DNA from: a virus
Lineage: Duplodnaviria > Heunggongvirae > Uroviricota > Caudoviricetes
IMG/VR virus record: IMGVR_UViG_3300014204_013127
Direction: 5' to 3' (one strand)
DNA: 64,000 bases
How positions within the stretch are numbered: position 1 is the first letter of the stretch; every line of letters begins with the position of its first letter. The position numbers and the translations under genes are program-made. The notes under the pieces were generated by a model. It saw only the letters and a program-made list of their open reading frames with translations, searched no databases and had not been told where the DNA came from. Positions 418 to 46,322 of the stretch are shown piece after piece.

Positions 418-1821
418 ATGGAAGCATTAAAAACACTAATTAGAAGGGTCAATAAATATCGACCAACAATTGTTGTCATAGGTGATTGTCTCCTTGACGA
501 ATACTACAACGTCGTTGCAGATAAACTCTCTCCCGAGTTTCCTATTGTAAGGATGCTGGGCACTAATGAAAGACCAGATGTAGTTGTTCCTGGTGGTGCT
601 GGAAATCTAGCAAATCAATTTAAATATTTTAACACGGATGTTAAACTCTTTGGATTTTTGGATATAGAAAGTCGTCCACTTTATCAATCCATTGGTGTTG
701 ATATTAGTGGATGTGAGACTTTATCTTCGCCTTCTTTTATTCCACGTAAAAGAAGATTCTATCAAGATAATTTCCCCCTTAGTCGTTGGGATATCGAGGT
801 GCCAAATTATGGATTGCAAGATATTGTGGAATATCAAAAGGATTTACTTGCAGCCTATGATGAAGTATCCGATGTTGCTGTGACAATATATGCTGATTAC
901 AACAAGGGAGTCTTATCAGGGGCTAATAAAACTCAATGGTTCAAAAAAGAACGAGACACAATTAGCATAATTGATCCGAAAAAAGGACCGCTTTGCCTTT
1001 GGAATGGTTGCACAATATTTAAGCCCAATGCTAAAGAAGCAGAAGAATTAAGTCATATTCCTTCTGTGCATTGGCAAAATCAATGCGATTTCTTTCAGCG
1101 GCAATTGGGTTGTATGGCGGTTGTTATTACTCATGGTGGTGATGGCGTTTATGGCAAAGTAATGGAAAAATATTTTGATTATCATTCTCCATATAGCTCG
1201 GACTGTGCATCTGTTATTGGGGCTGGTGATTGTTTTATTTCTGTTCTTGGATTAGCGATGGCCCATGCTTTAGATATTGTGGATGCTGTGCAAATAGCTT
1301 ACGAGGCAGGAGCAGTCTATGTTGGCAAGAAATATAATGAACCCATTTGTTTACAAGAGGTATATGCACGTATTGATCCTGTAGGCAGCAAAATGATCGA
1401 TATACAGTGTTTAAACAATAGGCCATACAAACTGGCGGTTACTAATGGGTGTTTTGATATTTTGCATTTTGGACATATGGAAATTCTTAAATTTGCCAAA
1501 TCGAAAGGAGATAAATTGCTTGTGCTTGTGGATACGGATGAGCAAGTAAAGAGATTTAAGGGCGAAGGCAGACCTGTAAATGATTTGCAAGCCAGGATGC
1601 GAATGCTGGCAGCATTGGAATGCGTAGATTTTGTGATGCCTTTTAATAGTAATGATGAGCTACATGATATTTATGCTCAAATTAAACCCGATGTTTTGGT
1701 AAAGGACAATACTTGGCCCTATATTGTGGGATCGGATGTGGCTAAAGAAGTGGTTGTTTTTCCAAGAGTGGAAGGTTATGCAACAACAAATATAGTGGAA
1801 AAAATTAAAAAATCTACATAG
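418..1821 (+). CDS. hldE: bifunctional D-beta-D-heptose 7-phosphate kinase / heptose 1-phosphate adenylyltransferase (HldE/RfaE)
   Basis: 467 aa. The N-terminal ribokinase/pfkB-like domain has GGAGNLAN and GAGDCF motifs. The C-terminal cytidylyltransferase-like domain has TNGCFDILHFGHMEIL, as in HldE domain II. Confidence 0.8.
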   Translation: MEALKTLIRRVNKYRPTIVVIGDCLLDEYYNVVADKLSPEFPIVRMLGTNERPDVVVPGGAGNLANQFKYFNTDVKLFGFLDIESRPLYQSIGVDISGCETLSSPSFIPRKRRFYQDNFPLSRWDIEVPNYGLQDIVEYQKDLLAAYDEVSDVAVTIYADYNKGVLSGANKTQWFKKERDTISIIDPKKGPLCLWNGCTIFKPNAKEAEELSHIPSVHWQNQCDFFQRQLGCMAVVITHGGDGVYGKVMEKYFDYHSPYSSDCASVIGAGDCFISVLGLAMAHALDIVDAVQIAYEAGAVYVGKKYNEPICLQEVYARIDPVGSKMIDIQCLNNRPYKLAVTNGCFDILHFGHMEILKFAKSKGDKLLVLVDTDEQVKRFKGEGRPVNDLQARMRMLAALECVDFVMPFNSNDELHDIYAQIKPDVLVKDNTWPYIVGSDVAKEVVVFPRVEGYATTNIVEKIKKST

Positions 1822-1828
1822 ATAAGAT

Positions 1829-2071
1829 ATGAAAACATATAAACAATGGTGTGAACAGACTGGAAAAGATGATTTAGCCAATGATTTGGCATTAGCTACG
1901 CAGAATGCTCTTAAGCAAGGCACAAATCCAGAGGCAGACGCAAAGAAAATATTAGCTCAAAAATCTATAGCTGCCCAATCCACAGGTGATTCTGATGCGG
2001 CGGCTAAGGTGGCAAATGCAGCTACTAAATTTAATCAAAATGCCAATGGCAAAAAGATGAAAAAGAAATGA
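1829..2071 (+). CDS. hypothetical Lys/Ala-rich small protein
   Basis: 80-aa ORF packed tightly after hldE; low-complexity basic C-terminus. Confidence 0.35.
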   Translation: MKTYKQWCEQTGKDDLANDLALATQNALKQGTNPEADAKKILAQKSIAAQSTGDSDAAAKVANAATKFNQNANGKKMKKK

Positions 2072-4914: not shown

Positions 4915-6990
4915 ATGGACACCAAATTAGAACAACTCGCCAATTTGTTTGATCGGAAGCAATTCAAAGTGCTTCATGAGGAAATTAGTTTTGCCGAATA
5001 TCTGGAAAGGTGCTATAAGACCCCCAGACTTATTCGTACCGCTTATCAACGATTGTATGATATGATAATGAGCGAAGGCACAAAGACTTTCAAGCGGTAC
5101 AGAAAAACTCACACTCATTATTGTTTCTTCGACAATACTGAAATTCCTATTTTCGGATTGGATGAAACTCTTGAGAGTTTGGTCAAATTCATCCGTGGTG
5201 CTGCTGGCGGATATGGTACAGAAAAGCGTGTGTTGCTTTTGCATGGTCCTGTGGGTTCTTCCAAATCCACTATTTGCCGATGCATCAAACGTGGTATGGA
5301 ATATTACAGCAATACCGAAGATGGCATTTGGTATACCTTCAAATGGGTGAATTTGCCCACGGGGAAAGATGGTATTTATACGCATCCCGAAGATGATTGC
5401 CCAATGCATGAAGAGCCACTTAAGTTGCTTCCCCTAGAATTGCGAAAGCGAGTGGTGGATGATTTGAATGAAGTGTTGAAAAACAACACTCCAGAAAATG
5501 AACGCACGCAGCTTTATACACTTCGCTGCGACAATGAATTAGACCCTCGTTGCAAAAAGTTTATGAATGAGTTGTTGCAAAAATATGAGGGTGATTGGGG
5601 CAAAGTCATCAAGGAGCACATTCGTGTTGTTCGCAAGGTTTATTCTGAGCCCGACCGTATGGGCATTGCTACCTTCCAGCCCAAAGATGAAAAAAATCAA
5701 GATTCGACGGAATTGACCGGCGACATTAATTATGCCAAACTCCCGCATTTTGGTTCAGATTCTGATCCTCGGGCGTTCAATTTCGATGGCGAATTTTGCA
5801 TCGGCAACAGGGGCGTAGTGGAATTCATCGAAGTTCTCAAGTTGGCCAAAGAATTCCTCTACGACCTGTTGGGTGCCTCTCAAGAACAACAAATCAAGCC
5901 CAAGAAGTTTGCTCAAATTTCTGTTGATACGGTTTTGATTGGACATACTAATAATCCTGAATTTGAAAAACTTCGATCTGATAATACGATGGAAGCGTTG
6001 AGAGATCGTACTGTTCGCATCGATGTTCCTTATTTGCTTCGATGGGGTGAAGAGTTGGCAATCTTGGAGCATTATTATGGGACGGGAAAAGTCAAGCAAC
6101 ACGTTGCTCCTCACACTTTGGAAATCGCTGCATTGTGGACAATTCTAACCCGCTTGCAGGATGATAAAGAGGGTAAACTATCGCTGGTTGATAAAGCAAA
6201 ATTGCTTGATGGCCGCAGCTTGCCTGGATATACGGAAGATACCGTCAAGGAATTGCGGGACAAATATCCTACAGAAGGAATGTCTGGTGTGTCCTGCCGT
6301 TATACCCAAGATAAGATTTCCAACTGCCTAGCTGCCCGACACGATTATATCAACCAATTTATGGTTTTGAATGAAATCAAGGAAGGGCTAGATCAATCCT
6401 CTCTTATCACGAACAAAGAGGATGTGGCAAAATATATTAAATGTGTGGATGCCGTCAGAAAGGAATTGGATGATATCTTGAAAAATGAAGTCCAAAAAGC
6501 CCTTGTTGGCGACGAAGATGCCATTATCCGTCTTTGCACAAATTATATTGATAATGTGCGAGCTTATATCAATAAGGTCAAAGTTATCAATCAAATTACC
6601 GGCGAAGATATGGAGCCCAACGAACGGCTCATGAGAAGCATCGAAGAAAAGATTGACATTCCCGAAGCGGGAGTGGATGAATTCCGCCGTGGTATTGCTG
6701 CTTTCATCGGCAGTCTTTCCATTGAAGGAAAAGTTTTCCGATGGGACTCTAATGCCAAGCTGAAAAAGGCGTTGGAAATGAAGCTCTTTGAAGACACCAA
6801 GGACCATATTAAATTGAGTGCCTTGGACATTCGGGGCAGTTCGGTAGTAGACCCCGACATTCAACAAAAAATTGACGCTATCAAACAGCGTCTTATCAAA
6901 CAGTATGGATATAATGAACAATCTGCAACGGATGTTCTGGCTCACGTCGGCAGCATCTTCAGTCGTGGAGATGTGAGCGATGACGAGTAA
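4915..6990 (+). CDS. prkA: PrkA/YeaG-family serine protein kinase (AAA+ N-domain plus kinase domain)
   Basis: 691 aa. Walker A LLLHGPVGSSKST matches the YeaG ILYLLGPVGGGKSS region. Overall length and architecture fit PrkA/YeaG. Confidence 0.8.
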   Translation: MDTKLEQLANLFDRKQFKVLHEEISFAEYLERCYKTPRLIRTAYQRLYDMIMSEGTKTFKRYRKTHTHYCFFDNTEIPIFGLDETLESLVKFIRGAAGGYGTEKRVLLLHGPVGSSKSTICRCIKRGMEYYSNTEDGIWYTFKWVNLPTGKDGIYTHPEDDCPMHEEPLKLLPLELRKRVVDDLNEVLKNNTPENERTQLYTLRCDNELDPRCKKFMNELLQKYEGDWGKVIKEHIRVVRKVYSEPDRMGIATFQPKDEKNQDSTELTGDINYAKLPHFGSDSDPRAFNFDGEFCIGNRGVVEFIEVLKLAKEFLYDLLGASQEQQIKPKKFAQISVDTVLIGHTNNPEFEKLRSDNTMEALRDRTVRIDVPYLLRWGEELAILEHYYGTGKVKQHVAPHTLEIAALWTILTRLQDDKEGKLSLVDKAKLLDGRSLPGYTEDTVKELRDKYPTEGMSGVSCRYTQDKISNCLAARHDYINQFMVLNEIKEGLDQSSLITNKEDVAKYIKCVDAVRKELDDILKNEVQKALVGDEDAIIRLCTNYIDNVRAYINKVKVINQITGEDMEPNERLMRSIEEKIDIPEAGVDEFRRGIAAFIGSLSIEGKVFRWDSNAKLKKALEMKLFEDTKDHIKLSALDIRGSSVVDPDIQQKIDAIKQRLIKQYGYNEQSATDVLAHVGSIFSRGDVSDDE

Positions 6991-7208
6991 AAAGCTAACC
7001 ATCAATCAGGATAGATGGTTGAAGGCAGAGTTTTCCACTTTGGTGAAATATGTGGCGTGGAAAACTGGCATATTACAACAAGTTTTGATAAAATATGTTG
7101 TTGCTGCTGGCCAGTATTACAAAGATAAATATGGTTTTTACAAAGATAAAATTGTTGTTTTTGTAAAGAGAGTTTTGTGGAATATTTTTAAAAAAAGACT
7201 ACAAAATA

Positions 7209-7712
7209 ATGGACAATGAAAATATAGAAGTTAAACGCCCCTCCGAGTTTGCTTTGGAAATAGCGGCTACTGCGTGGTGTAAGCCCGCAACTGAAATGAA
7301 AGCGATGGACCCTACTCTGGCAACAGCTTTTGCGGAGATTGTTGATGAAATAATATCTGTGGAACGGTGTGTGTCGAAAGATACTGTGAAACATCAAAAG
7401 CGTTTGATTTTGATGTTGGAAGACAAAGTAAAAACCCTTCGGCAGCAGACATGGATAGATGAAGCCACGATATGTGGTTTGCTCCAAGAACTTGCCGATG
7501 AACGTGCCCAGAATCAAATGGAGTATATAGTGAATAAGATTGATGAGTATTTGGATGAATATAGGGAAATTTACGGCAAGTCTATCAGTGGCAAAGAAGT
7601 GATGAATCATGTGGCACACGAGATAGTTGGTTTTGAATATTTGCACCGGCTCACGTCGCTAATGAGTATGGATGAAATGCCGCATTTTTCATATACAACG
7701 GAAGACGAATAA
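7209..7712 (+). CDS. hypothetical acidic protein
   Basis: 167-aa ORF with no recognisable motif. Confidence 0.4.
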   Translation: MDNENIEVKRPSEFALEIAATAWCKPATEMKAMDPTLATAFAEIVDEIISVERCVSKDTVKHQKRLILMLEDKVKTLRQQTWIDEATICGLLQELADERAQNQMEYIVNKIDEYLDEYREIYGKSISGKEVMNHVAHEIVGFEYLHRLTSLMSMDEMPHFSYTTEDE

Positions 7713-7894
7713 TGCTGTTTATATTGCTTATGATGTTTTTTGTGTGGTGTTGGTGGCTATGGGTGCCTTCTACAATTTTGTTTATTGTTTTGGCCGCTGT
7801 TAGCAAACATGCAGAGTGGTTGTGGGGCATACCTGTTGCCATTATTATTGAGGAAATTTGGTGGATTGCATACTTTAGTGAACACGTAAAATAA
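7712..7894 (+). CDS. small two-TM membrane protein (Trp-rich)
   Basis: 60-aa ORF with two hydrophobic helices; start overlaps the upstream stop. Confidence 0.3.
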   Translation: MLFILLMMFFVWCWWLWVPSTILFIVLAAVSKHAEWLWGIPVAIIIEEIWWIAYFSEHVK

Positions 7895-8610
7895 TGACAA
7901 CAAGATTTAGTCCAACCCCCAGTGGTAGACTTCACTTGGGGCATTTATATTTAGCATTGATAAACTATCATACCGCTGCCAGAGAGGGCGGCAGATTCAT
8001 AGTTAGGTTTGATGATCTGGATTTTCCAGAGTTGCAATCCTTGGGCAGAGATAAAGTCAATGAATTTTGTGAGACCATAAAGGAAGAGTTTTCTTGGATG
8101 GGTATGAAAGTTGATTTGTATTCTCATACTGCTAAAGAGCATGAAACAAATCTGCAATATTTGTCTGGTGTTCCTGGGTTGGAAAAGGATGATGGAATTA
8201 AATGGTCTCGCCCCTTTGTCAGAAATGAGGATAGGCCCTACCCATTTATTCCCCTAATCACAGCCATCAAGGTTGTGCAAGATCATCGTGAGGGATGTAA
8301 TATAATTATTCGTGGAGAGGACTTAGTATCGGAATCCAGTCTTTATTATTACTTCTGTCGATTGTTGGGGTTTGTTCCTCCAAAGCTATGTTATATACCT
8401 AAATTAATTCAACGAGATGGTCAAGACCTTTCCGATATGTCGAAGACCAGGGGCAATTTCAAGATTAAGGATTATCGTGAAAGAGGCTATGCCCCCCAGG
8501 ATGTTTTGAATTTATTGGCTGAGGCTTGTTTGGAGAAGTCTGACGGGGGTTGGTATGTGGAAAACACAAAGAAAAACCCTGTCTTAGACAAGCCTTACTG
8601 GGAACAATAA
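7894..8610 (+). CDS. truncated class-I GluRS catalytic-core protein (glutamyl-Q tRNA(Asp) synthetase-like)
   Basis: FSPTPSGRLHLGHL is a HIGH-type motif. RFIVRFDDLD, IIIRGEDL and the KMSKS-like DMSKTRG parallel the E. coli GluQ-RS (YadB) blocks. Only 238 aa. Confidence 0.5.
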   Translation: MTTRFSPTPSGRLHLGHLYLALINYHTAAREGGRFIVRFDDLDFPELQSLGRDKVNEFCETIKEEFSWMGMKVDLYSHTAKEHETNLQYLSGVPGLEKDDGIKWSRPFVRNEDRPYPFIPLITAIKVVQDHREGCNIIIRGEDLVSESSLYYYFCRLLGFVPPKLCYIPKLIQRDGQDLSDMSKTRGNFKIKDYRERGYAPQDVLNLLAEACLEKSDGGWYVENTKKNPVLDKPYWEQ

Positions 8611-9644
8611 TGAGCGTCATAGTTTTAGGATACAATAGCACAGATTATGGCAAGGATGATTTTGCAAGGTTTGCCGAATGTGAAATCGAAGCAGTGTGGT
8701 ATTATAATTATTGGTGGGAAACAGAGCCATTTCCTGGCAAATATAATTTTGACAGATTGTTAGAAGCAGAAGACTTAGCCAGGGCTAATGGTGTTAAAAT
8801 GTATGTCCACACTCCGGTGGGCACACCTCTATGGGCAGACCCTTCTTGGTATTTGCTCAATCAATATGGACAGGGCAATGATTTCTCGAAAGCGTTGGCA
8901 AGTTATAACCCTGCATTAAAAGATTTAAATGAGCAATTTTTCCCTTGGGGGAATGAATTGGGGCTGAGATTAGTCAATAGGTTTTTTAGTTATTGGCATG
9001 CCCAGGCTGAGAGCTATACGCAAAATTATATTGGGGTAGTAAAGAATACTTTTAAACATGCTATTACTGTTGGCAGCTTGGGTTGTTGGGGGGAATATTT
9101 TTTTCCATCGCCTCATTTTTATCAATTTATGGGCATAAAAGATTCCCCTTGGTGGTATGATATAAATGCCACATATAATTGGGTAACATCAGGATTGACC
9201 AGAGAAGATTGGTGCCGAAAAGAATTGTTGCGAGTATTAAAAGAACGCATGTTGTTAGGTGGTGAGAATTGGGTTCTTTTAGTTCCATATTGGAAGGATT
9301 GGGACAATTTTCAATTTGGCAATGATGGGTTTCAAGATATATACAAGGACAAGTCTCTCAACTTGAAATCTATTCTTTTGAGTGTGTTTCCCAATTATGT
9401 GAATTTGGTTTCTCCTCACGCAAAATTAAGTCCTACATATGGTGGTGCGGGCGGTGCAGAAGGAGTTGCAGTCAACGCTCTTGCCGCACAAAAACTTGGT
9501 TTGGCAGGACTGTTTTGTGGATTGCTGGGAGGATCGTCAACTGGTAGTGGTTCTGGTTTAATCAAGAAAACAGAGCCCTGGATGTTTGAAAATGTCAAAA
9601 AGGCCGTGTGGATTTTTAAGCATTTAAAAATTTTGATGTATTGA
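8610..9644 (+). CDS. putative TIM-barrel glycoside hydrolase-like protein (GH42/GH35/GH14-like signature) with Gly-rich C-terminus
   Basis: YWWETEPFPGKYNFDRLLEAEDLARANGVKMYV resembles the W..EP.EG.YDF block of clan GH-A glycosidases. ATG at 8610 overlaps the upstream stop (TAATG). Confidence 0.3.
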   Translation: MSVIVLGYNSTDYGKDDFARFAECEIEAVWYYNYWWETEPFPGKYNFDRLLEAEDLARANGVKMYVHTPVGTPLWADPSWYLLNQYGQGNDFSKALASYNPALKDLNEQFFPWGNELGLRLVNRFFSYWHAQAESYTQNYIGVVKNTFKHAITVGSLGCWGEYFFPSPHFYQFMGIKDSPWWYDINATYNWVTSGLTREDWCRKELLRVLKERMLLGGENWVLLVPYWKDWDNFQFGNDGFQDIYKDKSLNLKSILLSVFPNYVNLVSPHAKLSPTYGGAGGAEGVAVNALAAQKLGLAGLFCGLLGGSSTGSGSGLIKKTEPWMFENVKKAVWIFKHLKILMY

Positions 9645-9690
9645 TTAGGTGCAGGGATTTTGATACAATAGCATCATCAAGGAACTAATT

Positions 9691-10959: not shown

Positions 10960-10971
10960 AGGAAATAAATA

Positions 10972-14115: not shown

Positions 14116-15453
14116 ATGAATGACATAGTTGGTTTCGAGCATTTGCATCGCCATTCTCATTATTCTTTGTTGGATGGATACGGCACAGTTGAAGAGTATG
14201 CGATTTATTCCAAAGAAATAAATCAACAATATCTTTGCATTACCGATCACGGCATGATGAGTGCTGTTCCTAACCAAATCGCTTGCTGCGATAAACACGG
14301 TTTGCAGCCAATTTTTGGCGTAGAAATCTATTATCAACCAAAACAGCCCTGTGTGCAAAAGGGCGAGACTATGCAGCAGTATCTTAAAGAGATGCCACCA
14401 GAAGCCCGCAAGGCGATGCAGAAGTCATATCACATGACCTTGTGGGCCAAAAACGAGACAGGATATAAAAATCTTGTTCGTTTAACTTCTTTTGGATGGC
14501 TACACGGCTTCTACTATAAGCCTCGCATTAATTGGGATCAATTAGTGCAGCATAAAGAGGGGTTGATGGTTGGCAGCGGTTGTTTTAATAGTCCAGTGGG
14601 ACAAGCATTTAAAAACTTCGGTCCCGAAATGGCTATAGAGACCATCAAGAAATATCACAACTTGTTTGGTGAAAATTATTATTTGGAAATCATGTTGTTG
14701 GATTTTGTTAAACAAAAGCCCTACAACCAATTCATTGTTCAAGCACATGCAAAATTAGGCATTCCGTTAGTGCTCACACAAGACTGTCATTATTGCAAAA
14801 AAGAAGACAGCAAAATGCAACGGTTAATGCTTATGACTGGCTCTAAGAGAACGGTAGCCGATATGGAGCAAGCCGTTGCCGAAGGTAAAGCTGAAGAATA
14901 TTTTGAGTTGCAAGACACTAATCTCTGGATGAAATCCGAAGAGGAGATCAATGAGAAATGGGCATCTGACCCTTATCTCGATAAGGATTTGTTTAATGCT
15001 GCCAAGGCAAATACTGTGCGTATATGCGAACAATGCAAGGGAGTGCAACTGGATCGCTCGGTAAAATTGCCAAAAATTCCCAATGATGATGAAGTGTTGA
15101 AAAAACTTATCCAAGAGGGTGCGACTAAAAGAGGCATACCAAAGACTAGAGAATACTTGTCCAGAATGCAGGAAGAATACACCTTGGTGAAAGAGAAGGA
15201 GTTTTCTTCGTATTTTATTATTCAAAAAATGATGGTTGACGCTGCCCGTCAGAAATGCATCGAGTTATACGGCGGCACGGGAAGCACGGCAAGAGGGCCG
15301 GGCAGAGGCTCTGGTGCCGGGTTTATGATAAATTATCTTTTGGGAATAACTGATGTTGACCCGGTGAAGTATGATCTGTTATCATCAAGGTTCCTGAGCC
15401 CTGCTCGTGGTGGCAAGCAAATGAAAATCAGGTTTGATGACAAGCCATTATGA
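14116..15453 (+). CDS. dnaE: DNA polymerase III alpha subunit, N-terminal fragment (PHP domain to the thumb/palm boundary)
   Basis: The PHP motif [15 protein letters not shown] is present. The fragment ends ...[40 protein letters not shown], which parallels E. coli DnaE ~340-400 ([38 protein letters not shown]), followed by a stop codon. Confidence 0.8.
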   Translation: [445 protein letters not shown]

Positions 15454-36081: not shown

Positions 36082-38700
36082 ATGAGAGATTATAAAAAAG
36101 AGCTACAGTTGTTGTGCCAGCAAAAAATAGAGAGCTTAGGACTATGTTCAAACGCTCAATATGCAGATCGTCTGAAATTGGAGTTTAGACATATCGACTG
36201 GCAAGATGAGCACTATTATTTAGTGGATTTGTACGAAAGAAAATGTAAGTTTGCCAAAAATGAAAACAATATGTTGGTGGTCCATCTTTTAGGACTAGCC
36301 GATGAATTTGATATCAGCCAACCGCCAAAGTTTACGTTTATTGCCGAGTTCCCCGACATAGATTCAGATTTCTTGCCTGAAATTCAACAGTGGTTAAAAA
36401 ATGTCTGGGCTCCCCAAACCTTTGGGGCGGAATATGTTTGTAATATTGGTAATTATGCCACTTATGGCATCAAATCTGCTTTACAGGATATGGCCAGAGT
36501 TTATGGCTTGAGTCATGATGAAGTCAACACGGTTACCACCCAGATTGAAGATAAAGATGATGAAAATAAACCCATTACGTGGGAAAAAGCTTTGGAGCTA
36601 AACAAGGAATTGGCTGCTTATTGCGAGCAATATCCAGAGGTATATGATGCTGCCAAGCGATTGTATGGCAGGGTAAGGGGAATGGGCAAACATGCTGGTG
36701 GTTTGATTATTTCTAGCATGCCCTTGGCTGATTTTGTTCCATTGGTTGTGGACAAGCAAGGCAATCCGCTTTCAGCATGGACTGAAGGACTGCATGCTCA
36801 AGACTTGGCCCCTGTAGGATTGGTGAAAGTCGATGTATTGGTTATTACAAACTTAGTGCAAATAGCTAAGTGCTTGAAATTGATTCGTGAGCGATACGGT
36901 ATCGACAGGATGTGTAATTTAGAGGCACAGGATGATTGGTCGGACACAGAGAAGTACCAAAATGATCCTGATGCTATTGCTTTGGCAAACGAAGCAAAAT
37001 TAAAGTGCATTTTCCAATTTGATTCTCCCGGCATTAGGGATTTGGCAAAAAAGGGTGGTGTGACTTCATTTGATGATCTAGTGGCATTCACTAGTTTATA
37101 TCGTCCTGGTCCTATGGGCTCTCAACTCCACACCACCTATTGTAAGCGAAAAAAGGGCGAGCCATACGAGTTGCATCCATTGTTAAAGCCTATTTTGGAA
37201 AAAACATATGGGGTGATGTGTTACCAAGAACAGATCATGAAAATCTTCAATGTTATTGGGGGTTTTCCATTGCCTCAATGTTATAAAATTGTGAAGGCTA
37301 TTTCCAAGAAAAAAGGCGAGGTTTTCCAAAAAGCCAAAGTTCAATTTTTGGAACAATGCCAACAAAGATTGGATTATTCTGAGCAAGAAGCTAATGAATT
37401 TTTTGAGAGTATAGCAAAGTTTTCGGGATATGCTTTCAATTTAAGTCATGCTACTTCATATTCGTTTGTTTCTGCAATGCTGTTGTATTTGAAAGCTCAT
37501 TATCCTTTAGAGTTCTTTGCAGCTATTTTGAGTTGTGAAAAAAATGCTGACAAGATTAAAGAATACAGATTAGAAGCCCAAAGATTTGGGGTGCCGATCA
37601 ATCGTATTGATATCAATAAGTCGAAGGTTCATTTTGAAATTATAGACAATGAAATATATTTAGGGTTTGCGGACATTAAGGGTGTTGGTGATGAGGTTGC
37701 TGAAAAAATCGTGGCAGGACAGCCCTATAGTTCTTTTGTAGATTTTATGGAACGATTTGGCACTTATGCTGATGTTTTGAAGCCACTGATTGCTTTACGG
37801 GTTTTTTCTGATGAACCGATGGTTTTGTATGAATTTGCTGAATTCTATCGTTGCAAAAGCAAATCACGCAAAGATCGAGATAAGAGATATATTACTTCTC
37901 AACAAGATCGTCTAGATGAAATTATATCCTTAGTACAATCAGAATATGAGAAAATAATAGATGGCGATTGGTGTGCTCAGTTTAAAGACCTGAAGAAAAA
38001 GGAATTTATTGAAAAGCATAGTGCTATGTGTTTGGACGGCATGGCCGAAGATGTTTTTACAGCCATCAATCAATATAACAAATCTAAAGCCAACAATGAG
38101 AAAAAGGTAGCACTCGATACCGTTATCACAATGGATAATTGGAATCCATCGGGAAAAATAGATCACGAAATGCAGGTTTTATTATCACATCACTTGTCTA
38201 TTGCCGAAAACAAATATTATGGTTTTCCTTGGGATTATGTGTTGACGCAATCTCCTGATTATAAAGGAAGAACCTTTGAGGAGTTCGATATAGCAATTGC
38301 ACAGGGCGATCATGCCATTAAGCCGGTGGAGGTGCAGATAATAGAGAAGCCTCGAATTATGAAGTCTAAGAAAGGATACAAGGTCAAAGTTGTGGACGGC
38401 AATGGAAGAGCAGAAACTGTTACTATTTGGAAAGATGATTTTGAAAGATTTGAGGAAGAAATTGCTTGGTGGGAGCCGACATGCGAGTGGGGCAATTTAT
38501 TACAAATGAGGCTTAAAAAGCCTATGGGGGATTGGAAAGATTACACATTTGAAAGTTTCCCCAGAGAGCTTAGGAAAGAAATGGTGCCTAAGGAAAAAAG
38601 CCAAGATGGTCGTTTGAATGTTTTGCGTTGGCCGGAAAGTGCCATAGTCAAACAAGATGTAATAGATAAAATCAAGGAAGATTTTACTATTATAGACTAG
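36082..38700 (+). CDS. dnaE: DNA polymerase III alpha subunit, C-terminal fragment (palm catalytic aspartates onward, fingers, OB-like)
   Basis: FPDIDSDF is the PDFDVDF catalytic motif. GKHAGGLIIS matches GxHAxGvvI. YCKRKKGEPYELHPLLKPILEKTYGVMCYQEQIMKI matches the conserved fingers region. 872 aa, including an ~85-aa N-terminal extension with no DnaE counterpart. Confidence 0.8.
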   Translation: MRDYKKELQLLCQQKIESLGLCSNAQYADRLKLEFRHIDWQDEHYYLVDLYERKCKFAKNENNMLVVHLLGLADEFDISQPPKFTFIAEFPDIDSDFLPEIQQWLKNVWAPQTFGAEYVCNIGNYATYGIKSALQDMARVYGLSHDEVNTVTTQIEDKDDENKPITWEKALELNKELAAYCEQYPEVYDAAKRLYGRVRGMGKHAGGLIISSMPLADFVPLVVDKQGNPLSAWTEGLHAQDLAPVGLVKVDVLVITNLVQIAKCLKLIRERYGIDRMCNLEAQDDWSDTEKYQNDPDAIALANEAKLKCIFQFDSPGIRDLAKKGGVTSFDDLVAFTSLYRPGPMGSQLHTTYCKRKKGEPYELHPLLKPILEKTYGVMCYQEQIMKIFNVIGGFPLPQCYKIVKAISKKKGEVFQKAKVQFLEQCQQRLDYSEQEANEFFESIAKFSGYAFNLSHATSYSFVSAMLLYLKAHYPLEFFAAILSCEKNADKIKEYRLEAQRFGVPINRIDINKSKVHFEIIDNEIYLGFADIKGVGDEVAEKIVAGQPYSSFVDFMERFGTYADVLKPLIALRVFSDEPMVLYEFAEFYRCKSKSRKDRDKRYITSQQDRLDEIISLVQSEYEKIIDGDWCAQFKDLKKKEFIEKHSAMCLDGMAEDVFTAINQYNKSKANNEKKVALDTVITMDNWNPSGKIDHEMQVLLSHHLSIAENKYYGFPWDYVLTQSPDYKGRTFEEFDIAIAQGDHAIKPVEVQIIEKPRIMKSKKGYKVKVVDGNGRAETVTIWKDDFERFEEEIAWWEPTCEWGNLLQMRLKKPMGDWKDYTFESFPRELRKEMVPKEKSQDGRLNVLRWPESAIVKQDVIDKIKEDFTIID

Positions 38701-38729: not shown

Positions 38730-38933
38730 ATGTTAGCAACAAGTGAAAAATCCTGCACTCAACAACGAAAATGGTATCCCAAGTTGTTTCGTATTTTGTT
38801 TAATGGATTGTTTTCCTTTGATGAGTGTGAAGTATTTGTTCGAACAGATGCTCCCCACGCTTGTCAGACTGTATTAGCAGATTTTAGTAGCGTTTGTGGT
38901 TGTAGTGGTTGTTGTAGCAATATGGTAGCTTGA
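38730..38933 (+). CDS. small Cys-rich peptide (67 aa) with C-terminal CGCSGCC cluster; candidate RiPP precursor
   Basis: A perfect AAAGGAGGT ribosome-binding site lies 5 nt upstream of the ATG. The peptide ends ...ADFSSVCGCSGCCSNMVA, and the rSAM/SPASM gene follows 12 nt downstream. Confidence 0.55.
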   Translation: MLATSEKSCTQQRKWYPKLFRILFNGLFSFDECEVFVRTDAPHACQTVLADFSSVCGCSGCCSNMVA

Positions 38934-38945
38934 TAAAGGGATAAG

Positions 38946-40277
38946 ATGTTTAAAAGGTATAAACTTTCTAAATACAACATATTGGTGCAGCATGAAGATG
39001 TTTGGTTATTGTACAACCAAGTGTCTGGCACATTGATAAAATTGAATGATCGATTAAAGGATTTTCAAAAAATAGCCGACAGCACATTATGTTTAAGTAA
39101 GTTCAAAAGAAAGCTTCGCAAACACAAATTTTTAGTGCCTGTTGATGAGGATGAGTTTGCAACTTTTCGACAAACTGATGTAGATCATCTTAACAACAAT
39201 CAAGAGAAGAAATTTGTCATTGTTGTGACTAGTCGCTGCAATGCAGCTTGTTTTTATTGTTATGAAAAAGAGTGCAAAGAATATTGCATGGCTACCGACA
39301 TGTCATCCGATGTACAAGATCAGCTTGTGCGATTTATTGACCATTGTATTTCTTCCACCCCTACAATAAATTTTTCTATAACTTGGTATGGCGGCGAGCC
39401 GTTGTTGTGCCCAAATATAGTATGTGATCTTGCCAAAAAAATTAAAGATGTTTGCAAAAATAGAGGGGTGAAATTCTCAAACAATATTATTACTAACGGC
39501 ACATTATTAGACAACGAAATGATAGATCGATTGCTGTCAATCAATTGTCGTAGTGTTCAAATTACTATTGATGGGATGCGTGAAATACATGACGCAAGAA
39601 GACCTTTAATTGGTGCCAACCCATCTTCTTATGACATTATTATGGAGAACTTAATTGCTGGATATTCTAAGGGATTGGAAATAGATGTGCGAAGTAATCT
39701 TGATTACTCAAACTCTGAACAATACAAGCAATTTTTAGATGATATATTAAACAAAGGTCTCAATCAGAGAAATTCTGCCGGTGGTATTGTTAATCCATCG
39801 CCAGCGATGACTCGATTTCCAAATCAATTGGGCATGAAGCAAGAAGATTTTGCCATTGTGACCAATGATACTATTCAAGCATTGAAAGGAAAGACAGAAG
39901 TATATAGGTTTCTTGCTCCTACCTTACCGGGGTGCATGAAGAATATGAGATTTTATTACACAATAGCTCCAAACGGTAATGTGACCAAATGTATTGGTGG
40001 AATAAGCGACGAAGACGCCATTGGAACCATATATGACATGAAACTGGCAGAGGAAGACAGTGCTATAGCAATTAGTCCCTGTGAAGATACGGAGTGTGTT
40101 CATTGCCCCATATTACCTAGTTGTGGTGGAGGTTGTGTAGAACGACACAAGAAATACAATTGTGAAAAATGCCATTATGGTGGTTGTCAAACAATTCGAT
40201 GGACTATCAATAATGCAATTGTAGGATTGTATTATTTCTTATTGCACAGAGGAGAACTCGGAGGAGATAAAGAGTAA
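38946..40277 (+). CDS. radical SAM/SPASM enzyme (rSAM-3), candidate peptide maturase
   Basis: CNAACFYCYE CxxxCxxC; C-terminal CEDTECVHCPILPSCGGGC is a SPASM-like Cys cluster. Confidence 0.7.
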   Translation: MFKRYKLSKYNILVQHEDVWLLYNQVSGTLIKLNDRLKDFQKIADSTLCLSKFKRKLRKHKFLVPVDEDEFATFRQTDVDHLNNNQEKKFVIVVTSRCNAACFYCYEKECKEYCMATDMSSDVQDQLVRFIDHCISSTPTINFSITWYGGEPLLCPNIVCDLAKKIKDVCKNRGVKFSNNIITNGTLLDNEMIDRLLSINCRSVQITIDGMREIHDARRPLIGANPSSYDIIMENLIAGYSKGLEIDVRSNLDYSNSEQYKQFLDDILNKGLNQRNSAGGIVNPSPAMTRFPNQLGMKQEDFAIVTNDTIQALKGKTEVYRFLAPTLPGCMKNMRFYYTIAPNGNVTKCIGGISDEDAIGTIYDMKLAEEDSAIAISPCEDTECVHCPILPSCGGGCVERHKKYNCEKCHYGGCQTIRWTINNAIVGLYYFLLHRGELGGDKE

Positions 40278-41342
40278 TTTATTGTCGCTGTTTCTTGGAG
40301 CATTCTCATATTGTTCTATTTGCACTGGTTGATGCAATAATCCTTTTAACACATCTTTTGTTATCAATACAGATGTCTCATTTTGCTGATCTATAAATAA
40401 GGTGATTATTCCTTTTTTGTTTTGTCGAATCATATACGGCACAGGTGTTTGATTTTTTGATTTAAGAAATGAAGATATAAATGATGTAATTGTATGTGGG
40501 TCACAAGGCGTTTTGTTATTATCCCAAAGACATTGTATAGACTTTCCTGTAAATTCTGTAAAGACCCTGCCATAAATGCCGCATTGGCAACTCTTTGTTT
40601 GTATTACGCCCAGATCATCGGTTTTACAAGAGGCGTATGGTTGGCTGTAATTGAAAAAATCTGTGCTTGTAATTTCGTTGTAGTTATTTTGTTCAACAAG
40701 ACATAATTCGTCATCAATATGTTTTGTTCCGTACCTGCATTCTATAAAGCTTAGCCCCGTATCCCACGCTCTCATTTTATCTATAACAGATGTGTATATT
40801 TTGAGTGATTTATCACGAGTGTCGTCAAACAAGGTCTCACAGCTAAACATAACCACACAGTTAAGTGGTGTTTTGTTTTCTGTGGCAAAATAAGACGCCA
40901 TAAAAGTAGATGGTGTCGTATAGACCAAATCTGGACATATTTGGGCAGTTATGTCATACGCTTCTTCCCACTGTTGTTTATTGGCATTGTAAGGGATTGA
41001 AATTGTATAAACATTGTTGTTTAGAGATGCAATAGTGGATGGACCATCAATGCTTAAAGACTGTGAATTGGCTGTTGACACCATCCATGCAATGCGTAGC
41101 CTGGGATTTAGGTTGTTTAGGTAACAAATTTTATTAAAATGATATTTTTCAATATTTACAAATTCAGGCACAGAATATTTGTACATTTTTGCACAACCAG
41201 TGGTTGTGCCAGAGGTATGTAAAACAACATTGTTTGTTGATGTTCCGGCCTTTTTTTTTAGGTAACGGAGAGCCACTGTTTGGTAATGTGTCAAATGTTC
41301 ATAATTGCGAATATATTGCGGAGATAATGGAGCAAATATCAT
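40239..41342 (-). CDS. adenylate-forming enzyme (ANL superfamily, PaaK/F390-synthetase-like)
   Basis: HTSGTTTGCAKMY resembles the [ST]SGTTGxPK AMP-binding P-loop. 367 aa, convergent on and overlapping rSAM-3 by 39 nt. Confidence 0.4.
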   Translation of the reverse strand: MIFAPLSPQYIRNYEHLTHYQTVALRYLKKKAGTSTNNVVLHTSGTTTGCAKMYKYSVPEFVNIEKYHFNKICYLNNLNPRLRIAWMVSTANSQSLSIDGPSTIASLNNNVYTISIPYNANKQQWEEAYDITAQICPDLVYTTPSTFMASYFATENKTPLNCVVMFSCETLFDDTRDKSLKIYTSVIDKMRAWDTGLSFIECRYGTKHIDDELCLVEQNNYNEITSTDFFNYSQPYASCKTDDLGVIQTKSCQCGIYGRVFTEFTGKSIQCLWDNNKTPCDPHTITSFISSFLKSKNQTPVPYMIRQNKKGIITLFIDQQNETSVLITKDVLKGLLHQPVQIEQYENAPRNSDNKLLFISSEFSSVQ

Positions 41343-41391
41343 AATTTTTTAATTTGCTAACTTTCTTATATAGAACAAGAAAGGGTTTTTC

Positions 41392-41796
41392 ATGACCTAT
41401 CAAGATATCGATCAATCTAATTTCAACGAATATTTTTTCAACATTCGGGAGCACCAGCCCAAACCAGGGCAGGTAATGGCTTGTTTTCACGCCGTTTGTG
41501 AGCTAATAAATGGCGAAGAAAAGAAATTCCTCATTCAGACATTGCAGCGTCCCAATTCGGCTCAATCCGCTGCCAACATAATGTCTAAACTATTTTATGC
41601 TAATAAGGAGAGTTCTTGGCATACCCCTGCTGAGATAGCCCAAGACCTATTAGATGGCATGTCAGAAGACGAAGTGGCTCAGAAGCCTTATGAGTTTGTT
41701 GCCGAGTTCTATTACTACACAGATAGGGAATGTGTGCCGCCTGATGATCCACAATGGGAGGTAATAGAATTAATAAGGCCGAAAATAAATAATTAG
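41392..41796 (+). CDS. hypothetical protein
   Basis: 134-aa ORF. Confidence 0.35.
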   Translation: MTYQDIDQSNFNEYFFNIREHQPKPGQVMACFHAVCELINGEEKKFLIQTLQRPNSAQSAANIMSKLFYANKESSWHTPAEIAQDLLDGMSEDEVAQKPYEFVAEFYYYTDRECVPPDDPQWEVIELIRPKINN

Positions 41797-41837
41797 AACA
41801 TATATATCTGTGACTAATTATTCGAGAGGTCAAAAAT

Positions 41838-42464
41838 ATGGCAAATATGTATTATCAAGATAGAGAAGAGCTAGAAAAATGGGCTCAAATTATAGAAAAA
41901 GCAACAGCAGATGGTAAGTTTAAGAATGCAGCAAATGTAACTCCTTCTCCCAAAACCTCCGAGGAAAGCTTCTTTGGGCTGCAAAATACGCACCCCACCG
42001 ATAAGCCAGCCGAGCAGGATGTTAAATATTGGAATCAAGTAACCAAAAAGGCAGAAAATCCTTCTGTTTTGAATGAGGCAATAGACCCCAAATTAGTCAA
42101 AGAATGGCGTCGTATGGTTGGGCTTTCTACAAAGGACATTGTAGAAAGCACCGAAGATGTTGCTAATGTGGCGAAAAGTATTGCTCAAACACCAAATCCC
42201 ATAAGACAAAATACTGTGGGTATGGATCAGTCTTTGGAGCCCGGTTCTTTGGGGCTGACTTTCTCCGAAGAAGATATCAAGAATTTGGATGCATTAAAAA
42301 TTCAATTGCACGAAATGGAGTGCAAATTAAATGCTTTTGAGAGTCGAGGGGAAAATGCTTCTAAATTTGAGAAACAAATTCAAGTTCTTAAAGGTAAAAT
42401 AGATGCTTTAAGCACAGCTATGACGCAAAGTTTCCCCTATTCTATTAGCCCACAGGGAGATTAA
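41838..42464 (+). CDS. hypothetical coiled-coil protein
   Basis: 208 aa with a C-terminal heptad-like region; immediately upstream of the fibre-like protein. Confidence 0.35.
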   Translation: MANMYYQDREELEKWAQIIEKATADGKFKNAANVTPSPKTSEESFFGLQNTHPTDKPAEQDVKYWNQVTKKAENPSVLNEAIDPKLVKEWRRMVGLSTKDIVESTEDVANVAKSIAQTPNPIRQNTVGMDQSLEPGSLGLTFSEEDIKNLDALKIQLHEMECKLNAFESRGENASKFEKQIQVLKGKIDALSTAMTQSFPYSISPQGD

Positions 42465-42466
42465 TT

Positions 42467-43780
42467 ATGGCAACAAAAACATCCAATGGCACTGGTGGTG
42501 GAACATGGTCGGTTGGTGCAACATGGTCGGGTGGTGTTGCACCAACCATAGGCACAGATGATGTTGTTATAGCGTCTACTGATACTGTGACTTGTGATCT
42601 CAACAGCACAACACCAAGTAAAGGCATTGTAGTTAATGGGATTTTAAGTTTTTCTACGACTGCATCAACCAAGCTTACAATGGGTAATTATACTATTGCG
42701 ATTGGTGCCACTGGGGAATTGCGAATTGGTACGGTAGGTTCTGTGTTAGATAAAGCATATACAGCCGAAATATTGTGGGATACAACTACGGATGGAGCGA
42801 ACGGTATAACAATTGCCGATGGTGGAAAATTGACCTTATATGGCGATCCGTTATTGTATAGCAATATTTTATGCACAAGTATAGCGGATTTTTGTACCGT
42901 GACTGGCACATTAAGCCCCGATGTGACTGGATATTACTACCCAACCTCTGATTATCCATCTGGATGGAACGATCATACAGTTTATCAAAGAGATGGCCTT
43001 GTTGGCGGGGCTCAATATTTTATTTGGTACGATGCAGATGTGAGTCGTTGGAGATTGTCGGCTGAAGTAGGAGGTATTTTGCCATATCGATGGCTTTCAG
43101 CCAGTGCCATATTGAATTCTACGTTCAACCCTGGCGGCAATTCTACTGGAGTGGGCACTTGTATCAATGGGTGGCAACCATCATTAGGATTGACATTTAC
43201 AGTAGTGGGAGATGTGACAACAACATGGGCCAATGGGCAGGAGTTGTTAATTCATAAGAACGGGACATATTCACAAAATATTTACGATAGTTTTGCCGAC
43301 GCAGGATTGGGACCAGCTACAATTGTCTCATTGGTCGCTAATAGTTCAAATAGTGCAAATACTGACATTCAAATTGCGGAAGCCTACACAGGCAGGTATT
43401 ATAATACTGGTCGAGTATATAATTTAGATAGAAATATTAGAGTTGGCAAATTATCAGCATCTACTGATTTTGACGCAACACCAAACAATCGACCCATTAT
43501 CATTGATGATAATTCAACATCGGGCAATGTAAATGTAAGTAATGTTGTATTAACTGGGTTTTATCGACCGTTCATTAACACCGCAGGCACCAGCATATCT
43601 GCTCTATTTGCCAGAGCAATAATCAGAAATTCAGAATTGAGTGTTTGTAATGTTTCTACATCAATGGATGTGCTGGAGGTGGCTAATACTATTCAAATTG
43701 GTGCAAATAGATTAGATCAAACCGCAGTCGCCAGTTATTCTTTCCCCAACTATGGTGCGGTAGCTGGTGGCGGGGGTTAG
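42467..43780 (+). CDS. beta-helix/fibre-like structural protein (Thr/Gly/Asn-rich)
   Basis: N-terminal GTGGGTWSVGATWSGGVAPTIGTDDVVI is a W..G.TW.GG..P...D.V.I motif. The low-complexity composition is typical of parallel-beta-helix tail fibres/spikes. Confidence 0.4.
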   Translation: MATKTSNGTGGGTWSVGATWSGGVAPTIGTDDVVIASTDTVTCDLNSTTPSKGIVVNGILSFSTTASTKLTMGNYTIAIGATGELRIGTVGSVLDKAYTAEILWDTTTDGANGITIADGGKLTLYGDPLLYSNILCTSIADFCTVTGTLSPDVTGYYYPTSDYPSGWNDHTVYQRDGLVGGAQYFIWYDADVSRWRLSAEVGGILPYRWLSASAILNSTFNPGGNSTGVGTCINGWQPSLGLTFTVVGDVTTTWANGQELLIHKNGTYSQNIYDSFADAGLGPATIVSLVANSSNSANTDIQIAEAYTGRYYNTGRVYNLDRNIRVGKLSASTDFDATPNNRPIIIDDNSTSGNVNVSNVVLTGFYRPFINTAGTSISALFARAIIRNSELSVCNVSTSMDVLEVANTIQIGANRLDQTAVASYSFPNYGAVAGGGG

Positions 43781-43834
43781 AGATTTGTTTTCGTTTTAGG
43801 AATGCAATTTTTTTACAGCTTACTCTGCTAAAGC

Positions 43835-44020
43835 ATGGAAAAATGCTTCAAAATGCACTGTCGTCATTGCAAGTGGACAGAGCTATCTACTGGCATATCT
43901 GCTGATTTGGCTCATCTTGCCGAAGTAAAAAAGTGTGCTAATTGTGGCGGTCCAAGAGTTTTCAAATGCCCTAAATGCAACACGCAAGTCAAGCTTATTA
44001 GAATTCGGGGAAATACATGA
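43835..44020 (+). CDS. small zinc-ribbon protein
   Basis: CRHC...CANCGG...CPKC in 61 aa. Confidence 0.3.
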   Translation: MEKCFKMHCRHCKWTELSTGISADLAHLAEVKKCANCGGPRVFKCPKCNTQVKLIRIRGNT

Positions 44021-45162
44021 GGTTAATCAAGTCGCCCCCCAAAGCCAAAGAAGAAACAATGGAGGATATTAGTTTTAATGTCCATAAATTTAATGCTCGG
44101 CCTAAGCCCAAAGATATTCGCAAAATTCTAATTATTTCTACGCTTTTTGAGTTTGGGTGTGAAACATTATCTGTGCTTTATAGCATCCCAAAAGTATTAC
44201 AGAATTATGGCGGTTTGTATGTAATTGTCTTAGGATGGTACGGTCGTTCTTATTTGTATCGACACTTGGCAGATGAGTTTTGGGAACTAAAAGAGGAACA
44301 TCAGTGGCTTAGAGATTACTCTAATGCATTTAGCAATTCCTCAAAAAACATTGCCCTTTTGCATAAAGAAGTGGCAAAATTGGGTAATTTTTGCCCACCT
44401 GAGCATTTGGCGGCTTGTGCGATAGTCAATTCTTGTAAAAAATGCAATCATTATTGGCGTGAAGACACCGAAGAATGTCCTAATTGTAAAAACGCAACTT
44501 TTGTCAAATCTTTATTTAATGATATACATTTTTGGAAACGATTGGCAATTCCTTTGCCACCTCCTTCGCCTGATAAGATGGAGGAAGCAAAAAAATATTT
44601 AAAGCCAAAAAGTGTGGCTGTTTTCGCTAGAGGCAGAGCCACCTATGGCAGGAATTTACAGCCTGAATTTTACGTTAAATTGGTTAAATTATTGCGTGAC
44701 ATGGGTTATAATCCAATTTGGTTGGGCGAAAAACAGAGTACACAAGCCTGTCCTGTTGATGGAATCATAGACATGTCTCGCAAGATAGAAGCCAGAGATT
44801 TAGAACTAACATTTGCGATTGTGAAACAATGCGAATTCACAGTGCAGTTTTGGACAGCTTCTACACGTTTGGCTGGAATGATGGGAGTGCCTTATATTTT
44901 AGCAGAAAGTCCAGATCAAATTTGGGGAATAGGACAAGAAGGTTATAGAAGAAATTTATGTGATTTCGGACCAAGAAAACTTATAGTTTCTCATTTCTGG
45001 AATGCGTATAATGACAATGAGGCATTTATCGATTTGACTAAGAGGGCTATTTTAGAAATGAATATTGGAAACTATGAAGATATTTTTGGATTACTAGAGA
45101 CGGAACATGTGGCACAACAATGGAAAAAAGAGAATGATAAAAGAATTGGAGCTTACACATGA
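44017..45162 (+). CDS. GT9-family (ADP-heptose heptosyltransferase-like) glycosyltransferase with internal Cys cluster
   Basis: Architecture parallels GT9. The N-domain reads KILIISTLFEFGCETL. KPKSVAVFARGRATYGRNLQPEFYVKLVKLLRDMGYNPIWLGEK...DLELTFAIVKQCEFTVQFWTASTRLAGMMGVPYILAESP compares with the iavfpGas...K.WP...f..L...L...G..vvl.G.......a.li...dlfIgnDSG.mHLAaA.g.P.vaLfGpt consensus. An insert CPPEHLAACAIVNSCKKCNHYWREDTEECPNCKN carries two CxxC pairs. Confidence 0.45.
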   Translation: MRLIKSPPKAKEETMEDISFNVHKFNARPKPKDIRKILIISTLFEFGCETLSVLYSIPKVLQNYGGLYVIVLGWYGRSYLYRHLADEFWELKEEHQWLRDYSNAFSNSSKNIALLHKEVAKLGNFCPPEHLAACAIVNSCKKCNHYWREDTEECPNCKNATFVKSLFNDIHFWKRLAIPLPPPSPDKMEEAKKYLKPKSVAVFARGRATYGRNLQPEFYVKLVKLLRDMGYNPIWLGEKQSTQACPVDGIIDMSRKIEARDLELTFAIVKQCEFTVQFWTASTRLAGMMGVPYILAESPDQIWGIGQEGYRRNLCDFGPRKLIVSHFWNAYNDNEAFIDLTKRAILEMNIGNYEDIFGLLETEHVAQQWKKENDKRIGAYT

Positions 45163-46322
45163 TAGATGTTGATGTCCCATCCATACTAACCCGAGCCGCA
45201 GATAAATGTGGTTTTACTCGCACCCGATGGGTGGAGAAGGACATCCCTGGCAATTTGTCCAATATTTGTACTGTTTTATTTTTTGGGGACATACGATCCA
45301 GTTTTATACTTTCTTCTATGTTGTTAAAGCGTTATCGTGAACAAGTAAAAACTTCTAAATATTTCATTGTCTGCACTTGGCCCGGTTATGAGCATCTTTT
45401 TCCTTATGTGAATGAAGTGTGGACGATACGTGAAGAAAGTGTTTTGAAAAAGTTTGCTTTGTCTGCCAATGGTTTTGACAACGAATCTGAGTTAAGTGTG
45501 CATTTTAGAAGGGAATTGAATTATTGGTTGGAAGATGTCGCCGGGCCAGAAGTATTTTTGTCAGTTTATGACAATGGAATCAAGAAGGAATTTTGGGATA
45601 AGTTCAAACATGTTCGCAGATATTTGATGAGCGTTCCTTCATCTGGTATTTTAGGGGCCGAATTTAATAGGCAATTGATTGCAAGTGGTGCAAAAGTTTT
45701 ATTATATCCTGTAGAACAGATACGGTCCTGGCGGCAGGGGTCTTTGACTTACATAAAGAGTCCGAAGAGTTTTTGGGTAAAATTAGCAGAAAGCTTGGTT
45801 GACAGTGGTATTACTCCCATTATTTATCAAAATTTTACAACTCATGATCTTTCCACAGAACTACCCAGTTGCATGTATACAACTGAGAAGGATGTGGTAA
45901 AATTAATGGGTGTCATGAGAACAGTAGGATGTGTGTTAGATGTGTTTTCTGGTATTTCTCGTTGGTCTATGGCAGCAAGAGCCCCGTTTGTGGCATTAGA
46001 TGAGCGTTTAAGGTATAATGGGCAAAAAGAGTATGAGATAGATGATTTATTGGCGGATAAAACACTTCCAAGGCGATATATATTTTCTTTTCCTAATATT
46101 GTACCAGAAAATAGCGTAGATGTATGGAAAAATAACTTTTTTGATGTTATACTATCTACTGTGGGGTCATTTTTGAAGGAATTAGATCGAGAAAAGTGGC
46201 CATCGCCAGTAGAAAGAGAAGAGATCGTACTCTATGATAATGTACGACAAATGCGAACCAATAAAATGGGTGCAAAATTTTTAAAAGTAAATAGAGACTT
46301 GAGGAGTACAACATGGCAGTGA
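45159..46322 (+). CDS. GT9-like glycosyltransferase (second copy)
   Basis: Similar architecture: NICTVLFFGDIRSS N-terminus and a ...VGCVLDVFSGISRWSMAARAPFVALDE C-terminal block. Confidence 0.4.
   Translation: MIDVDVPSILTRAADKCGFTRTRWVEKDIPGNLSNICTVLFFGDIRSSFILSSMLLKRYREQVKTSKYFIVCTWPGYEHLFPYVNEVWTIREESVLKKFALSANGFDNESELSVHFRRELNYWLEDVAGPEVFLSVYDNGIKKEFWDKFKHVRRYLMSVPSSGILGAEFNRQLIASGAKVLLYPVEQIRSWRQGSLTYIKSPKSFWVKLAESLVDSGITPIIYQNFTTHDLSTELPSCMYTTEKDVVKLMGVMRTVGCVLDVFSGISRWSMAARAPFVALDERLRYNGQKEYEIDDLLADKTLPRRYIFSFPNIVPENSVDVWKNNFFDVILSTVGSFLKELDREKWPSPVEREEIVLYDNVRQMRTNKMGAKFLKVNRDLRSTTWQ

Follow-up and report, generated by a model that had tools for sequence, protein, structure and literature searches.

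A window of 64,000 nucleotides from a Caudoviricetes record in IMG/VR (IMGVR_UViG_3300014204_013127), by which the whole stretch of DNA that was analysed is meant, is part of a 340-kb metagenomic contig binned as 'Proteobacteria bacterium'; judged by its genes it belongs to a huge phage, with an apparently split DNA polymerase III alpha, ribosomal protein bS21, peptide deformylase, IF3, DnaJ, homologs of PrkA, DUF444 and SpoVR, and several radical SAM enzymes. This work concerns two adjacent open reading frames (ORFs) of the window, ORF-A and ORF-B, and a distant gene for an HldE-like enzyme. A first-pass annotation made from the sequence had read the three as an ADP-heptose supply and two GT9-like heptosyltransferases, and all three ORFs are indeed present, with exactly the coordinates proposed and on the plus strand. 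Structure prediction places the pair in the GT-B fold, and comparison with related phages places it in a conserved cassette with bS21. The features are as follows.

418..1821, plus strand: HldE-like bifunctional sugar-phosphate kinase (PfkB)/adenylyltransferase, a candidate ADP-heptose supplier (Pfam, NCBIfam and identity to E. coli HldE)
43835..44020, plus strand: opening gene of the cassette, encoding a 61-aa zinc-ribbon-type protein that has three CxxC pairs, and overlapping the start of ORF-A by 4 nt (ORF clustering)
44017..45162, plus strand: ORF-A, the better conserved of the two paired genes; its product is predicted to be a GT-B protein of GT9-like fold into which a Cys4 ribbon is inserted
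44434..44487, plus strand: Cys4 (CxxC-10-CxxC), a rubredoxin-like putative metal ribbon at residues 140–157 of ORF-A, at the end of the N-lobe
45159..46322, plus strand: ORF-B, distantly paralogous to ORF-A; it shares the predicted GT9-like GT-B fold, lacks the Cys4 insert and has a 'GD' motif (G43-D44)
46313..46537, plus strand: phage ribosomal protein bS21, last gene of the cassette, overlapping the end of ORF-B by 10 nt (Pfam Ribosomal_S21)

Alignment-based AlphaFold models of the two monomers, with predicted local distance difference test (pLDDT) values of 92.4 for ORF-A and 92.1 for ORF-B, were compared with solved structures, giving the following structure-comparison scores (ORF-A / ORF-B).

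WaaF (1psw): 16.9 / 14.1
Veillonella GT9 protein (3tov): 16.2 / 13.9
PnsB1 (7wff chain a): 14.0 / 13.5
WaaC (2h1f): 13.9 / 10.9
TibC (4rap): 13.7 / 11.1

Other GT-B families scored at most 11.4 against ORF-A, and a structure search of BFVD returned weak matches at most (TM ≤0.48). As modelled, both proteins have a GT-B fold whose nearest solved structures are the GT9 heptosyltransferases, yet identity to the best-matching structures, WaaF, WaaC and the Veillonella protein among them, is only about 10%. The invariant residues of ORF-A sit at the ends of Rossmann strands, the sites of donor and acceptor binding in GT-B enzymes.

E45-F-G-C-E49, after N-beta1: WaaC catalytic-base region
R205, R207 and R212, after C-beta1: invariant R212 falls at WaaC K192, the phosphate-binding Lys, only on extension of the hhalign alignment
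G237-E238, after C-beta2: no WaaC residue aligned
T280-A281-S282-x-R284, C-lobe loop: WaaC T262-G263...H266
E297-S-P-D-Q301, C-lobe loop: WaaC GPTDP

ORF-B carries a GT9-style 'GD' motif (F-F-G43-D44, compare WaaC D13) whose Asp is kept in 51 of 53 family members. In the alignment of the two paralogs this Asp shares a column with the invariant E45 of ORF-A; the N-lobes could not be aligned directly with that of WaaC by hhalign. K/R203 of ORF-B, present in 46/53 members, was tested as the counterpart of WaaC K192. Given the invariant residues at the predicted donor and base positions and the GD motif of ORF-B, the pair is probably active, with the identity of the transferred sugar less secure.

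Profile comparison identified ORF-A and ORF-B as distant full-length paralogs (probability 97%, E 7e-11), the Cys4 insert being missing in ORF-B. A weak sequence bridge from ORF-A to GT9 was found in the C-lobe, where hhalign aligned the ORF-A family with E. coli WaaC, WaaF, WaaQ and WaaU (E 1e-4, probability 58%), and where an exhaustive hidden Markov model (HMM) search connected the ORF-A profile to protein P0481 (E 2.6e-4), which itself matches PF01075 over the same region (E 1.8e-4). A sub-threshold NCBIfam match of ORF-A to TIGR04372, an uncharacterised glycosyltransferase domain, was also recorded. Neither ORF matched PHROGs or PADLOC, PDB sequences gave only zinc-ribbon noise with the ORFs and with their profiles, and megablast of positions 40000–47000 against GenBank phages found no match.

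The ORF-A family gave 923 word-indexed matches, many on contigs of 200–620 kb, with a similar result for ORF-B. The exhaustive HMM search of 1.84 billion representatives yielded only 127 matches, without reaching the large canonical family of GT9 enzymes. A set of 185,579 species-representative genomes gave seven loci, all on contigs of metagenome-assembled genomes, and their mutually inconsistent taxonomy is consistent with mis-binned phage DNA. Among GenBank phages one relative was found: LR756511, from a vernal pool, is complete at 595,163 bp (Al-Shayeb et al. 2020), and its published host prediction is not decisive (Proteobacteria 4% versus Parcubacteria 2.3%). The pair family is restricted to one lineage of huge phages.

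The CxxC...CxxC pairs claimed for the first of the two ORFs are present as C140-x-x-C143...C154-x-x-C157, all four Cys residues being invariant in 54/54 homologs, and the family shows weak Pfam matches to HypA, Zn_ribbon and rubredoxin-like models. The first-pass annotation had likened this motif to the iron finger of TibC. TibC possesses a flattened beta-barrel at its N-terminus (spanning residues 1–97), a beta-hairpin thumb and Asp110 as catalytic base, and its iron finger (Cys339/342/358/370) is inserted in the C-lobe, roughly 20 Å away from the catalytic cleft (PMC4358343). In contrast, the ORF-A model lacks an N-terminal barrel, only one short strand (residues 20–24) preceding the first Rossmann strand (37–41), and its Cys4 follows the final helix of the N-lobe, ahead of the inter-lobe linker. 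This Cys4 is read as a metal ribbon with a structural or recognition role, analogous to the iron finger of TibC; it is a different insertion, and its position is not homologous. Dodecameric ring assembly is a further hallmark of the TibC/Aah family; the models compared here are of monomers. Unlike TibC/Aah, the pair has no gene for an autotransporter beta-helix substrate nearby, and ORF-A is structurally nearer to WaaF than to TibC. Structural comparison therefore upheld a GT9-like fold with WaaF as the best match, while the proposed TibC/Aah likeness did not survive it.

To place the pair in context, 59 IMG/VR loci with an ORF-A homolog (33–60% identity) were compared. ORF-B follows ORF-A in 58/59, and bS21 follows ORF-B in 55 of about 60, at a median gap of 10 nt. 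A small protein with three CxxC pairs (61–66 aa) forms a cluster found in 48 of about 60 loci; in 35 loci it was scored as the immediate upstream neighbour of ORF-A, the median overlap being 4 nt; the 61-aa copy in the window has no Pfam match. Gaps within the cassette run from −4 to +10 nt. This cassette of zinc-ribbon protein, ORF-A, ORF-B and bS21 is the strongest context of the pair and was missed by the first-pass annotation, and the lineage-wide coupling of the pair to bS21 is its most unexpected feature. The conserved block around it reads, in order, DNA polymerase III alpha, two uncharacterised genes and a variable region upstream of the cassette, and then, from the cassette on, an RHH-like protein, peptide deformylase, several small uncharacterised proteins, dCMP deaminase, IF3 and DnaJ, with peptide deformylase and IF3 lying a few kb downstream of bS21. 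A scan for promoters and terminators around the cassette gave counts equal to those of shuffled controls.

In the window, the variable region that immediately precedes the cassette holds a G8-domain, Thr/Ser/Gly-rich protein of 437 aa (42467–43780), which is probably a beta-helix fibre or receptor-binding protein. Genes for this protein, a radical SAM/SPASM enzyme and an F390-synthetase-like protein flank the pair in the window; each was found in 0/59 related loci, so all three are best taken as local insertions and were rejected as partners of the pair. The protein with long poly-Ser runs reported to begin at position 60628 was confirmed (1131 aa) and lies 14 kb downstream of the pair.

The gene at 418–1821 combines the Pfam domains PfkB and CTP_transf_like, and its top NCBIfam match is the HldE equivalog NF008454 (E 3e-63), with residues 16–466 covering model positions 11–474 of 475. 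E. coli HldE aligns with it over the full length at 29% identity (E 4e-52), and the best PDB match of its kinase domain is the heptose-7-phosphate kinase HldA (4e84). Among 37 homologs, G268, A269, G270 and D271 of the GAGD motif and H353 are invariant, and H350 of HxGH is nearly so. It thus resembles the HldE (RfaE) of Gram-negative bacteria in its kinase–adenylyltransferase fusion and its intact motifs. It differs in being encoded by a phage without GmhA, GmhB or HldD and in its setting in related phages, where it lies among nucleotide-metabolism genes (ThyX, ThyA and DHFR upstream) and is followed by PrkA/DUF444(YeaH)/SpoVR homologs.

HldE lies 42 kb from the pair in the window, outside the operon of the pair, and in related loci it is never closer than 10 kb. 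Co-occurrence was counted among the best 80 of the 160–192 HldE loci in each scan, and the figures are lower bounds: at least 24 of 48 tabulated pair-bearing contigs carry both, as do at least 19 of the 32 pair-bearing contigs with 50 kb or more upstream of ORF-A. On 23/24 shared contigs HldE is 20–42 kb upstream of the pair on the same strand, and the complete LR756511 has HldE, the polymerase, ORF-A and ORF-B in the gene order of the window. HldE is a syntenic gene of the lineage that carries the pair, and the co-conservation is real.

The absence of GmhA and GmhB from the window, as the first reading had it, was borne out by the precomputed Pfam annotation, which contains no SIS or HAD domain there, and by tblastn with the E. 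coli proteins. E. coli GmhA, GmhB, WaaC, WaaF and WaaQ likewise found no match by tblastn in the window and about 140 related loci. Two candidates in LR756511 were set aside: an apparent GmhB match is a polynucleotide kinase/phosphatase, and an apparent HldD match belongs to a separate, unrelated glycan cluster. This cluster, at 107–117 kb, holds a methyltransferase, a GT2/GT92 enzyme, a GHMP kinase–nucleotidyltransferase fusion, an epimerase, a GT11 fucosyltransferase-like protein, a DegT aminotransferase and a GDP-mannose 4,6-dehydratase, with a eukaryotic-type Ser/Thr kinase located inside it. A genuine heptose pathway in the HldE family is supported by P0271, a 702-aa HldE homolog fused to a GmhB-type HAD phosphatase domain. 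A single polypeptide of this kind would carry out three of the four enzymatic reactions leading to ADP-heptose. In 31 fetched related loci a 128-aa cupin with a weak D-lyxose-isomerase-like match lies about 3.5 kb upstream of HldE and may be a sugar isomerase acting with it; neither the window nor LR756511 has it, and it was rejected as a substitute for GmhA.

The explanation favoured here, at a probability of roughly 45% and hence tentatively, is that ORF-A and ORF-B are an active GT9-like pair that acts sequentially on one conserved acceptor, plausibly with HldE-derived ADP-heptose as donor. The two would be anciently duplicated and very divergent GT-B glycosyltransferases, with the GT9 ADP-heptose heptosyltransferases as closest structural kin, probably co-transcribed with the zinc-ribbon protein and bS21 as a tight cassette. 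Both would be inverting transferases adding sugars in succession to a single acceptor, as do WaaC and WaaF, and a conserved protein would be a more likely target than host lipopolysaccharide (LPS). ADP-heptose is a plausible donor because the lineage conserves an HldE-like kinase/adenylyltransferase whose catalytic motifs appear intact, and the phage, having no GmhA or GmhB, would rely on its host for heptose-7-phosphate and the 7-phosphatase step.

Several observations weigh against this explanation. Pfam Glyco_transf_9 (PF01075) was matched at E≤1 by neither ORF nor by any of 54 ORF-A-family and 53 ORF-B-family members, and none of these 107 reached any Pfam glycosyltransferase model; the two-domain GT9 layout attributed to the pair thus holds for the fold and not for family membership. 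WaaC D261, the heptose-binding Asp that is invariant in E. coli WaaC, WaaF, WaaQ and WaaU, is replaced in the hhalign alignment by W279 in ORF-A and F263 in ORF-B, with Gln277 and Asp261, respectively, two residues upstream of that column, and the donor may therefore not be heptose. The third-best structural match of both ORFs, PnsB1, is a non-enzymatic GT9-fold subunit. The identification of the kinase/adenylyltransferase as HldE stands on its two-domain layout, full-length match and motifs and falls short at the NCBIfam equivalog cutoff: it scored 214 bits against NF008454, whose cutoff is 521, and was also under the cutoffs of the domain models (124 versus 345 and 120 versus 181.5). HldE lies outside the operon, and shared clade ancestry alone may account for its presence alongside the pair; several long pair-bearing contigs, one of 572 kb for example, are not among the HldE matches listed. 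Finally, gmhA and gmhB were not found in a scan of the whole genome of LR756511.

An unlikely alternative is that the proteins are analogues of WaaC and WaaF that remodel the inner core of host LPS, for instance for superinfection exclusion or envelope integrity during a long infection. WaaF and WaaC as best structural matches, an arrangement of adjacent paralogs that resembles E. coli waaF-waaC, and a phage HldE that would raise donor supply are all compatible with this. The isoelectric point (pI) of the N-lobe, a weak discriminator, points both ways, that of ORF-A being moderately basic (median 8.8) and that of ORF-B near neutral (7.6, versus 9.6 in the E. coli enzymes). However, about 10% identity to WaaC/WaaF and a phage-only family indicate that the pair is not a recently captured host gene, and the heptose-binding Asp is not conserved, Trp or Phe taking its place. 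The pair also differs from WaaF/WaaC in the Cys4 ribbon of ORF-A and from LPS core clusters in its operon with bS21. Strong conservation of the ORF-A N-lobe over a wide clade and the presence of bS21 in the operon both fit a phage-encoded or universal cytoplasmic target better than LPS.

Loss of catalysis offers another account, also improbable, in which the pair are pseudo-glycosyltransferases that serve as scaffolds or ligand sensors, perhaps in complex with the zinc-ribbon protein or bS21. The precedent is PnsB1 (NDF1), a plant structural subunit of chloroplast NDH, which shows that the fold can be recruited to a non-enzymatic role. Against this, ORF-A has its invariant charged residues grouped exactly at the GT-B donor loops and the catalytic-base position, and ORF-B retains the GD motif. 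As the donor-binding positions of ORF-A are invariant, catalysis is favoured over a role like that of PnsB1.

The main idea of the first-pass annotation, O-heptosylation of Ser residues in beta-helix or Ser-rich virion fibres by TibC/Aah-like enzymes fed with ADP-heptose by HldE, appears rather doubtful. Glycosylation of phage virions has a precedent in mycobacteriophages, TibC is within the top five structural matches of a GT9-like fold, and HldE is co-conserved with the pair. The window places the fibre-like G8 protein immediately upstream of the pair and the poly-Ser protein downstream of it. No evidence links either proposed substrate to the pair, however. The pair is universal in the 59 related loci from which the G8 protein is missing, and its conserved neighbours serve replication and translation rather than virion structure. 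The absence of the TibC hallmarks, both the barrel and the placement of Cys4, and the closer match to WaaF argue in the same direction.

It is a long shot that the cassette is a unit of phage translation takeover, in which HldE-fed GT9-like enzymes would glycosylate bS21, the zinc-ribbon protein, or a ribosomal protein or factor of the host. Translation-factor glycosylation has a precedent in EarP, which rhamnosylates EF-P, and ribosomes would, were this reading true, be marked or retuned for phage mRNAs. Very hard to credit is glycosylation of phage DNA by the pair in the manner of the T4 GT-B glucosyltransferases, in evasion of host restriction. In its favour, DNA-modifying GT-B enzymes of phages are well known, DNA polymerase III alpha lies 5 kb from the pair and dCMP deaminase is near it, ThyX, ThyA and DHFR genes flank HldE in relatives, and a zinc ribbon could bind nucleic acid.

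The pair are core genes of one large huge-phage lineage, hitherto labelled hypothetical or zinc-ribbon regulator, and many translation and metabolic genes of huge phages have had their roles guessed from annotation. Here the pair is read as a deeply diverged branch of the heptosyltransferase fold, coupled to bS21 and accompanied by a phage HldE. If active, the two proteins would represent a new glycosyltransferase family and a phage-directed glycosylation conserved across hundreds of uncultured giant phages.

Several other genes of the window were recorded. DNA polymerase III alpha appears to be split, with the PHP domain and N-terminal part in the ORF at 14116–15453 and the core, finger and HHH domains in a separate 872-aa ORF 20 kb away (36082–38700). 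The PrkA/YeaH(DUF444)/SpoVR triad homologs occupy 4915–12570, a few kb downstream of HldE, a position kept in most related HldE loci, and PrkA is the most conserved protein compared (68% identity to the LR756511 copy). A RiPP-like (ribosomally synthesized and post-translationally modified peptide) cassette at 38730–41342, found in 0/59 related loci, is inserted in this huge phage. It comprises a 67-aa ORF with a Cys-rich tail, SSVCGCSGCCSNMVA, directly upstream of the radical SAM/SPASM peptide maturase (38946–40277), whose best NCBIfam match, below cutoff, is the 'rSAM_vs_C_rich' RiPP maturase, and the convergent F390-synthetase-like adenylate-forming gene comes after it. A thiamine-diphosphate enzyme resembling acetolactate synthase (50430–52034) lies between a conserved gene with no assigned function (49673–50461) and IF3. 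A GT2 glycosyltransferase at 57034–57771 has a counterpart in LR756511 at 55% identity.

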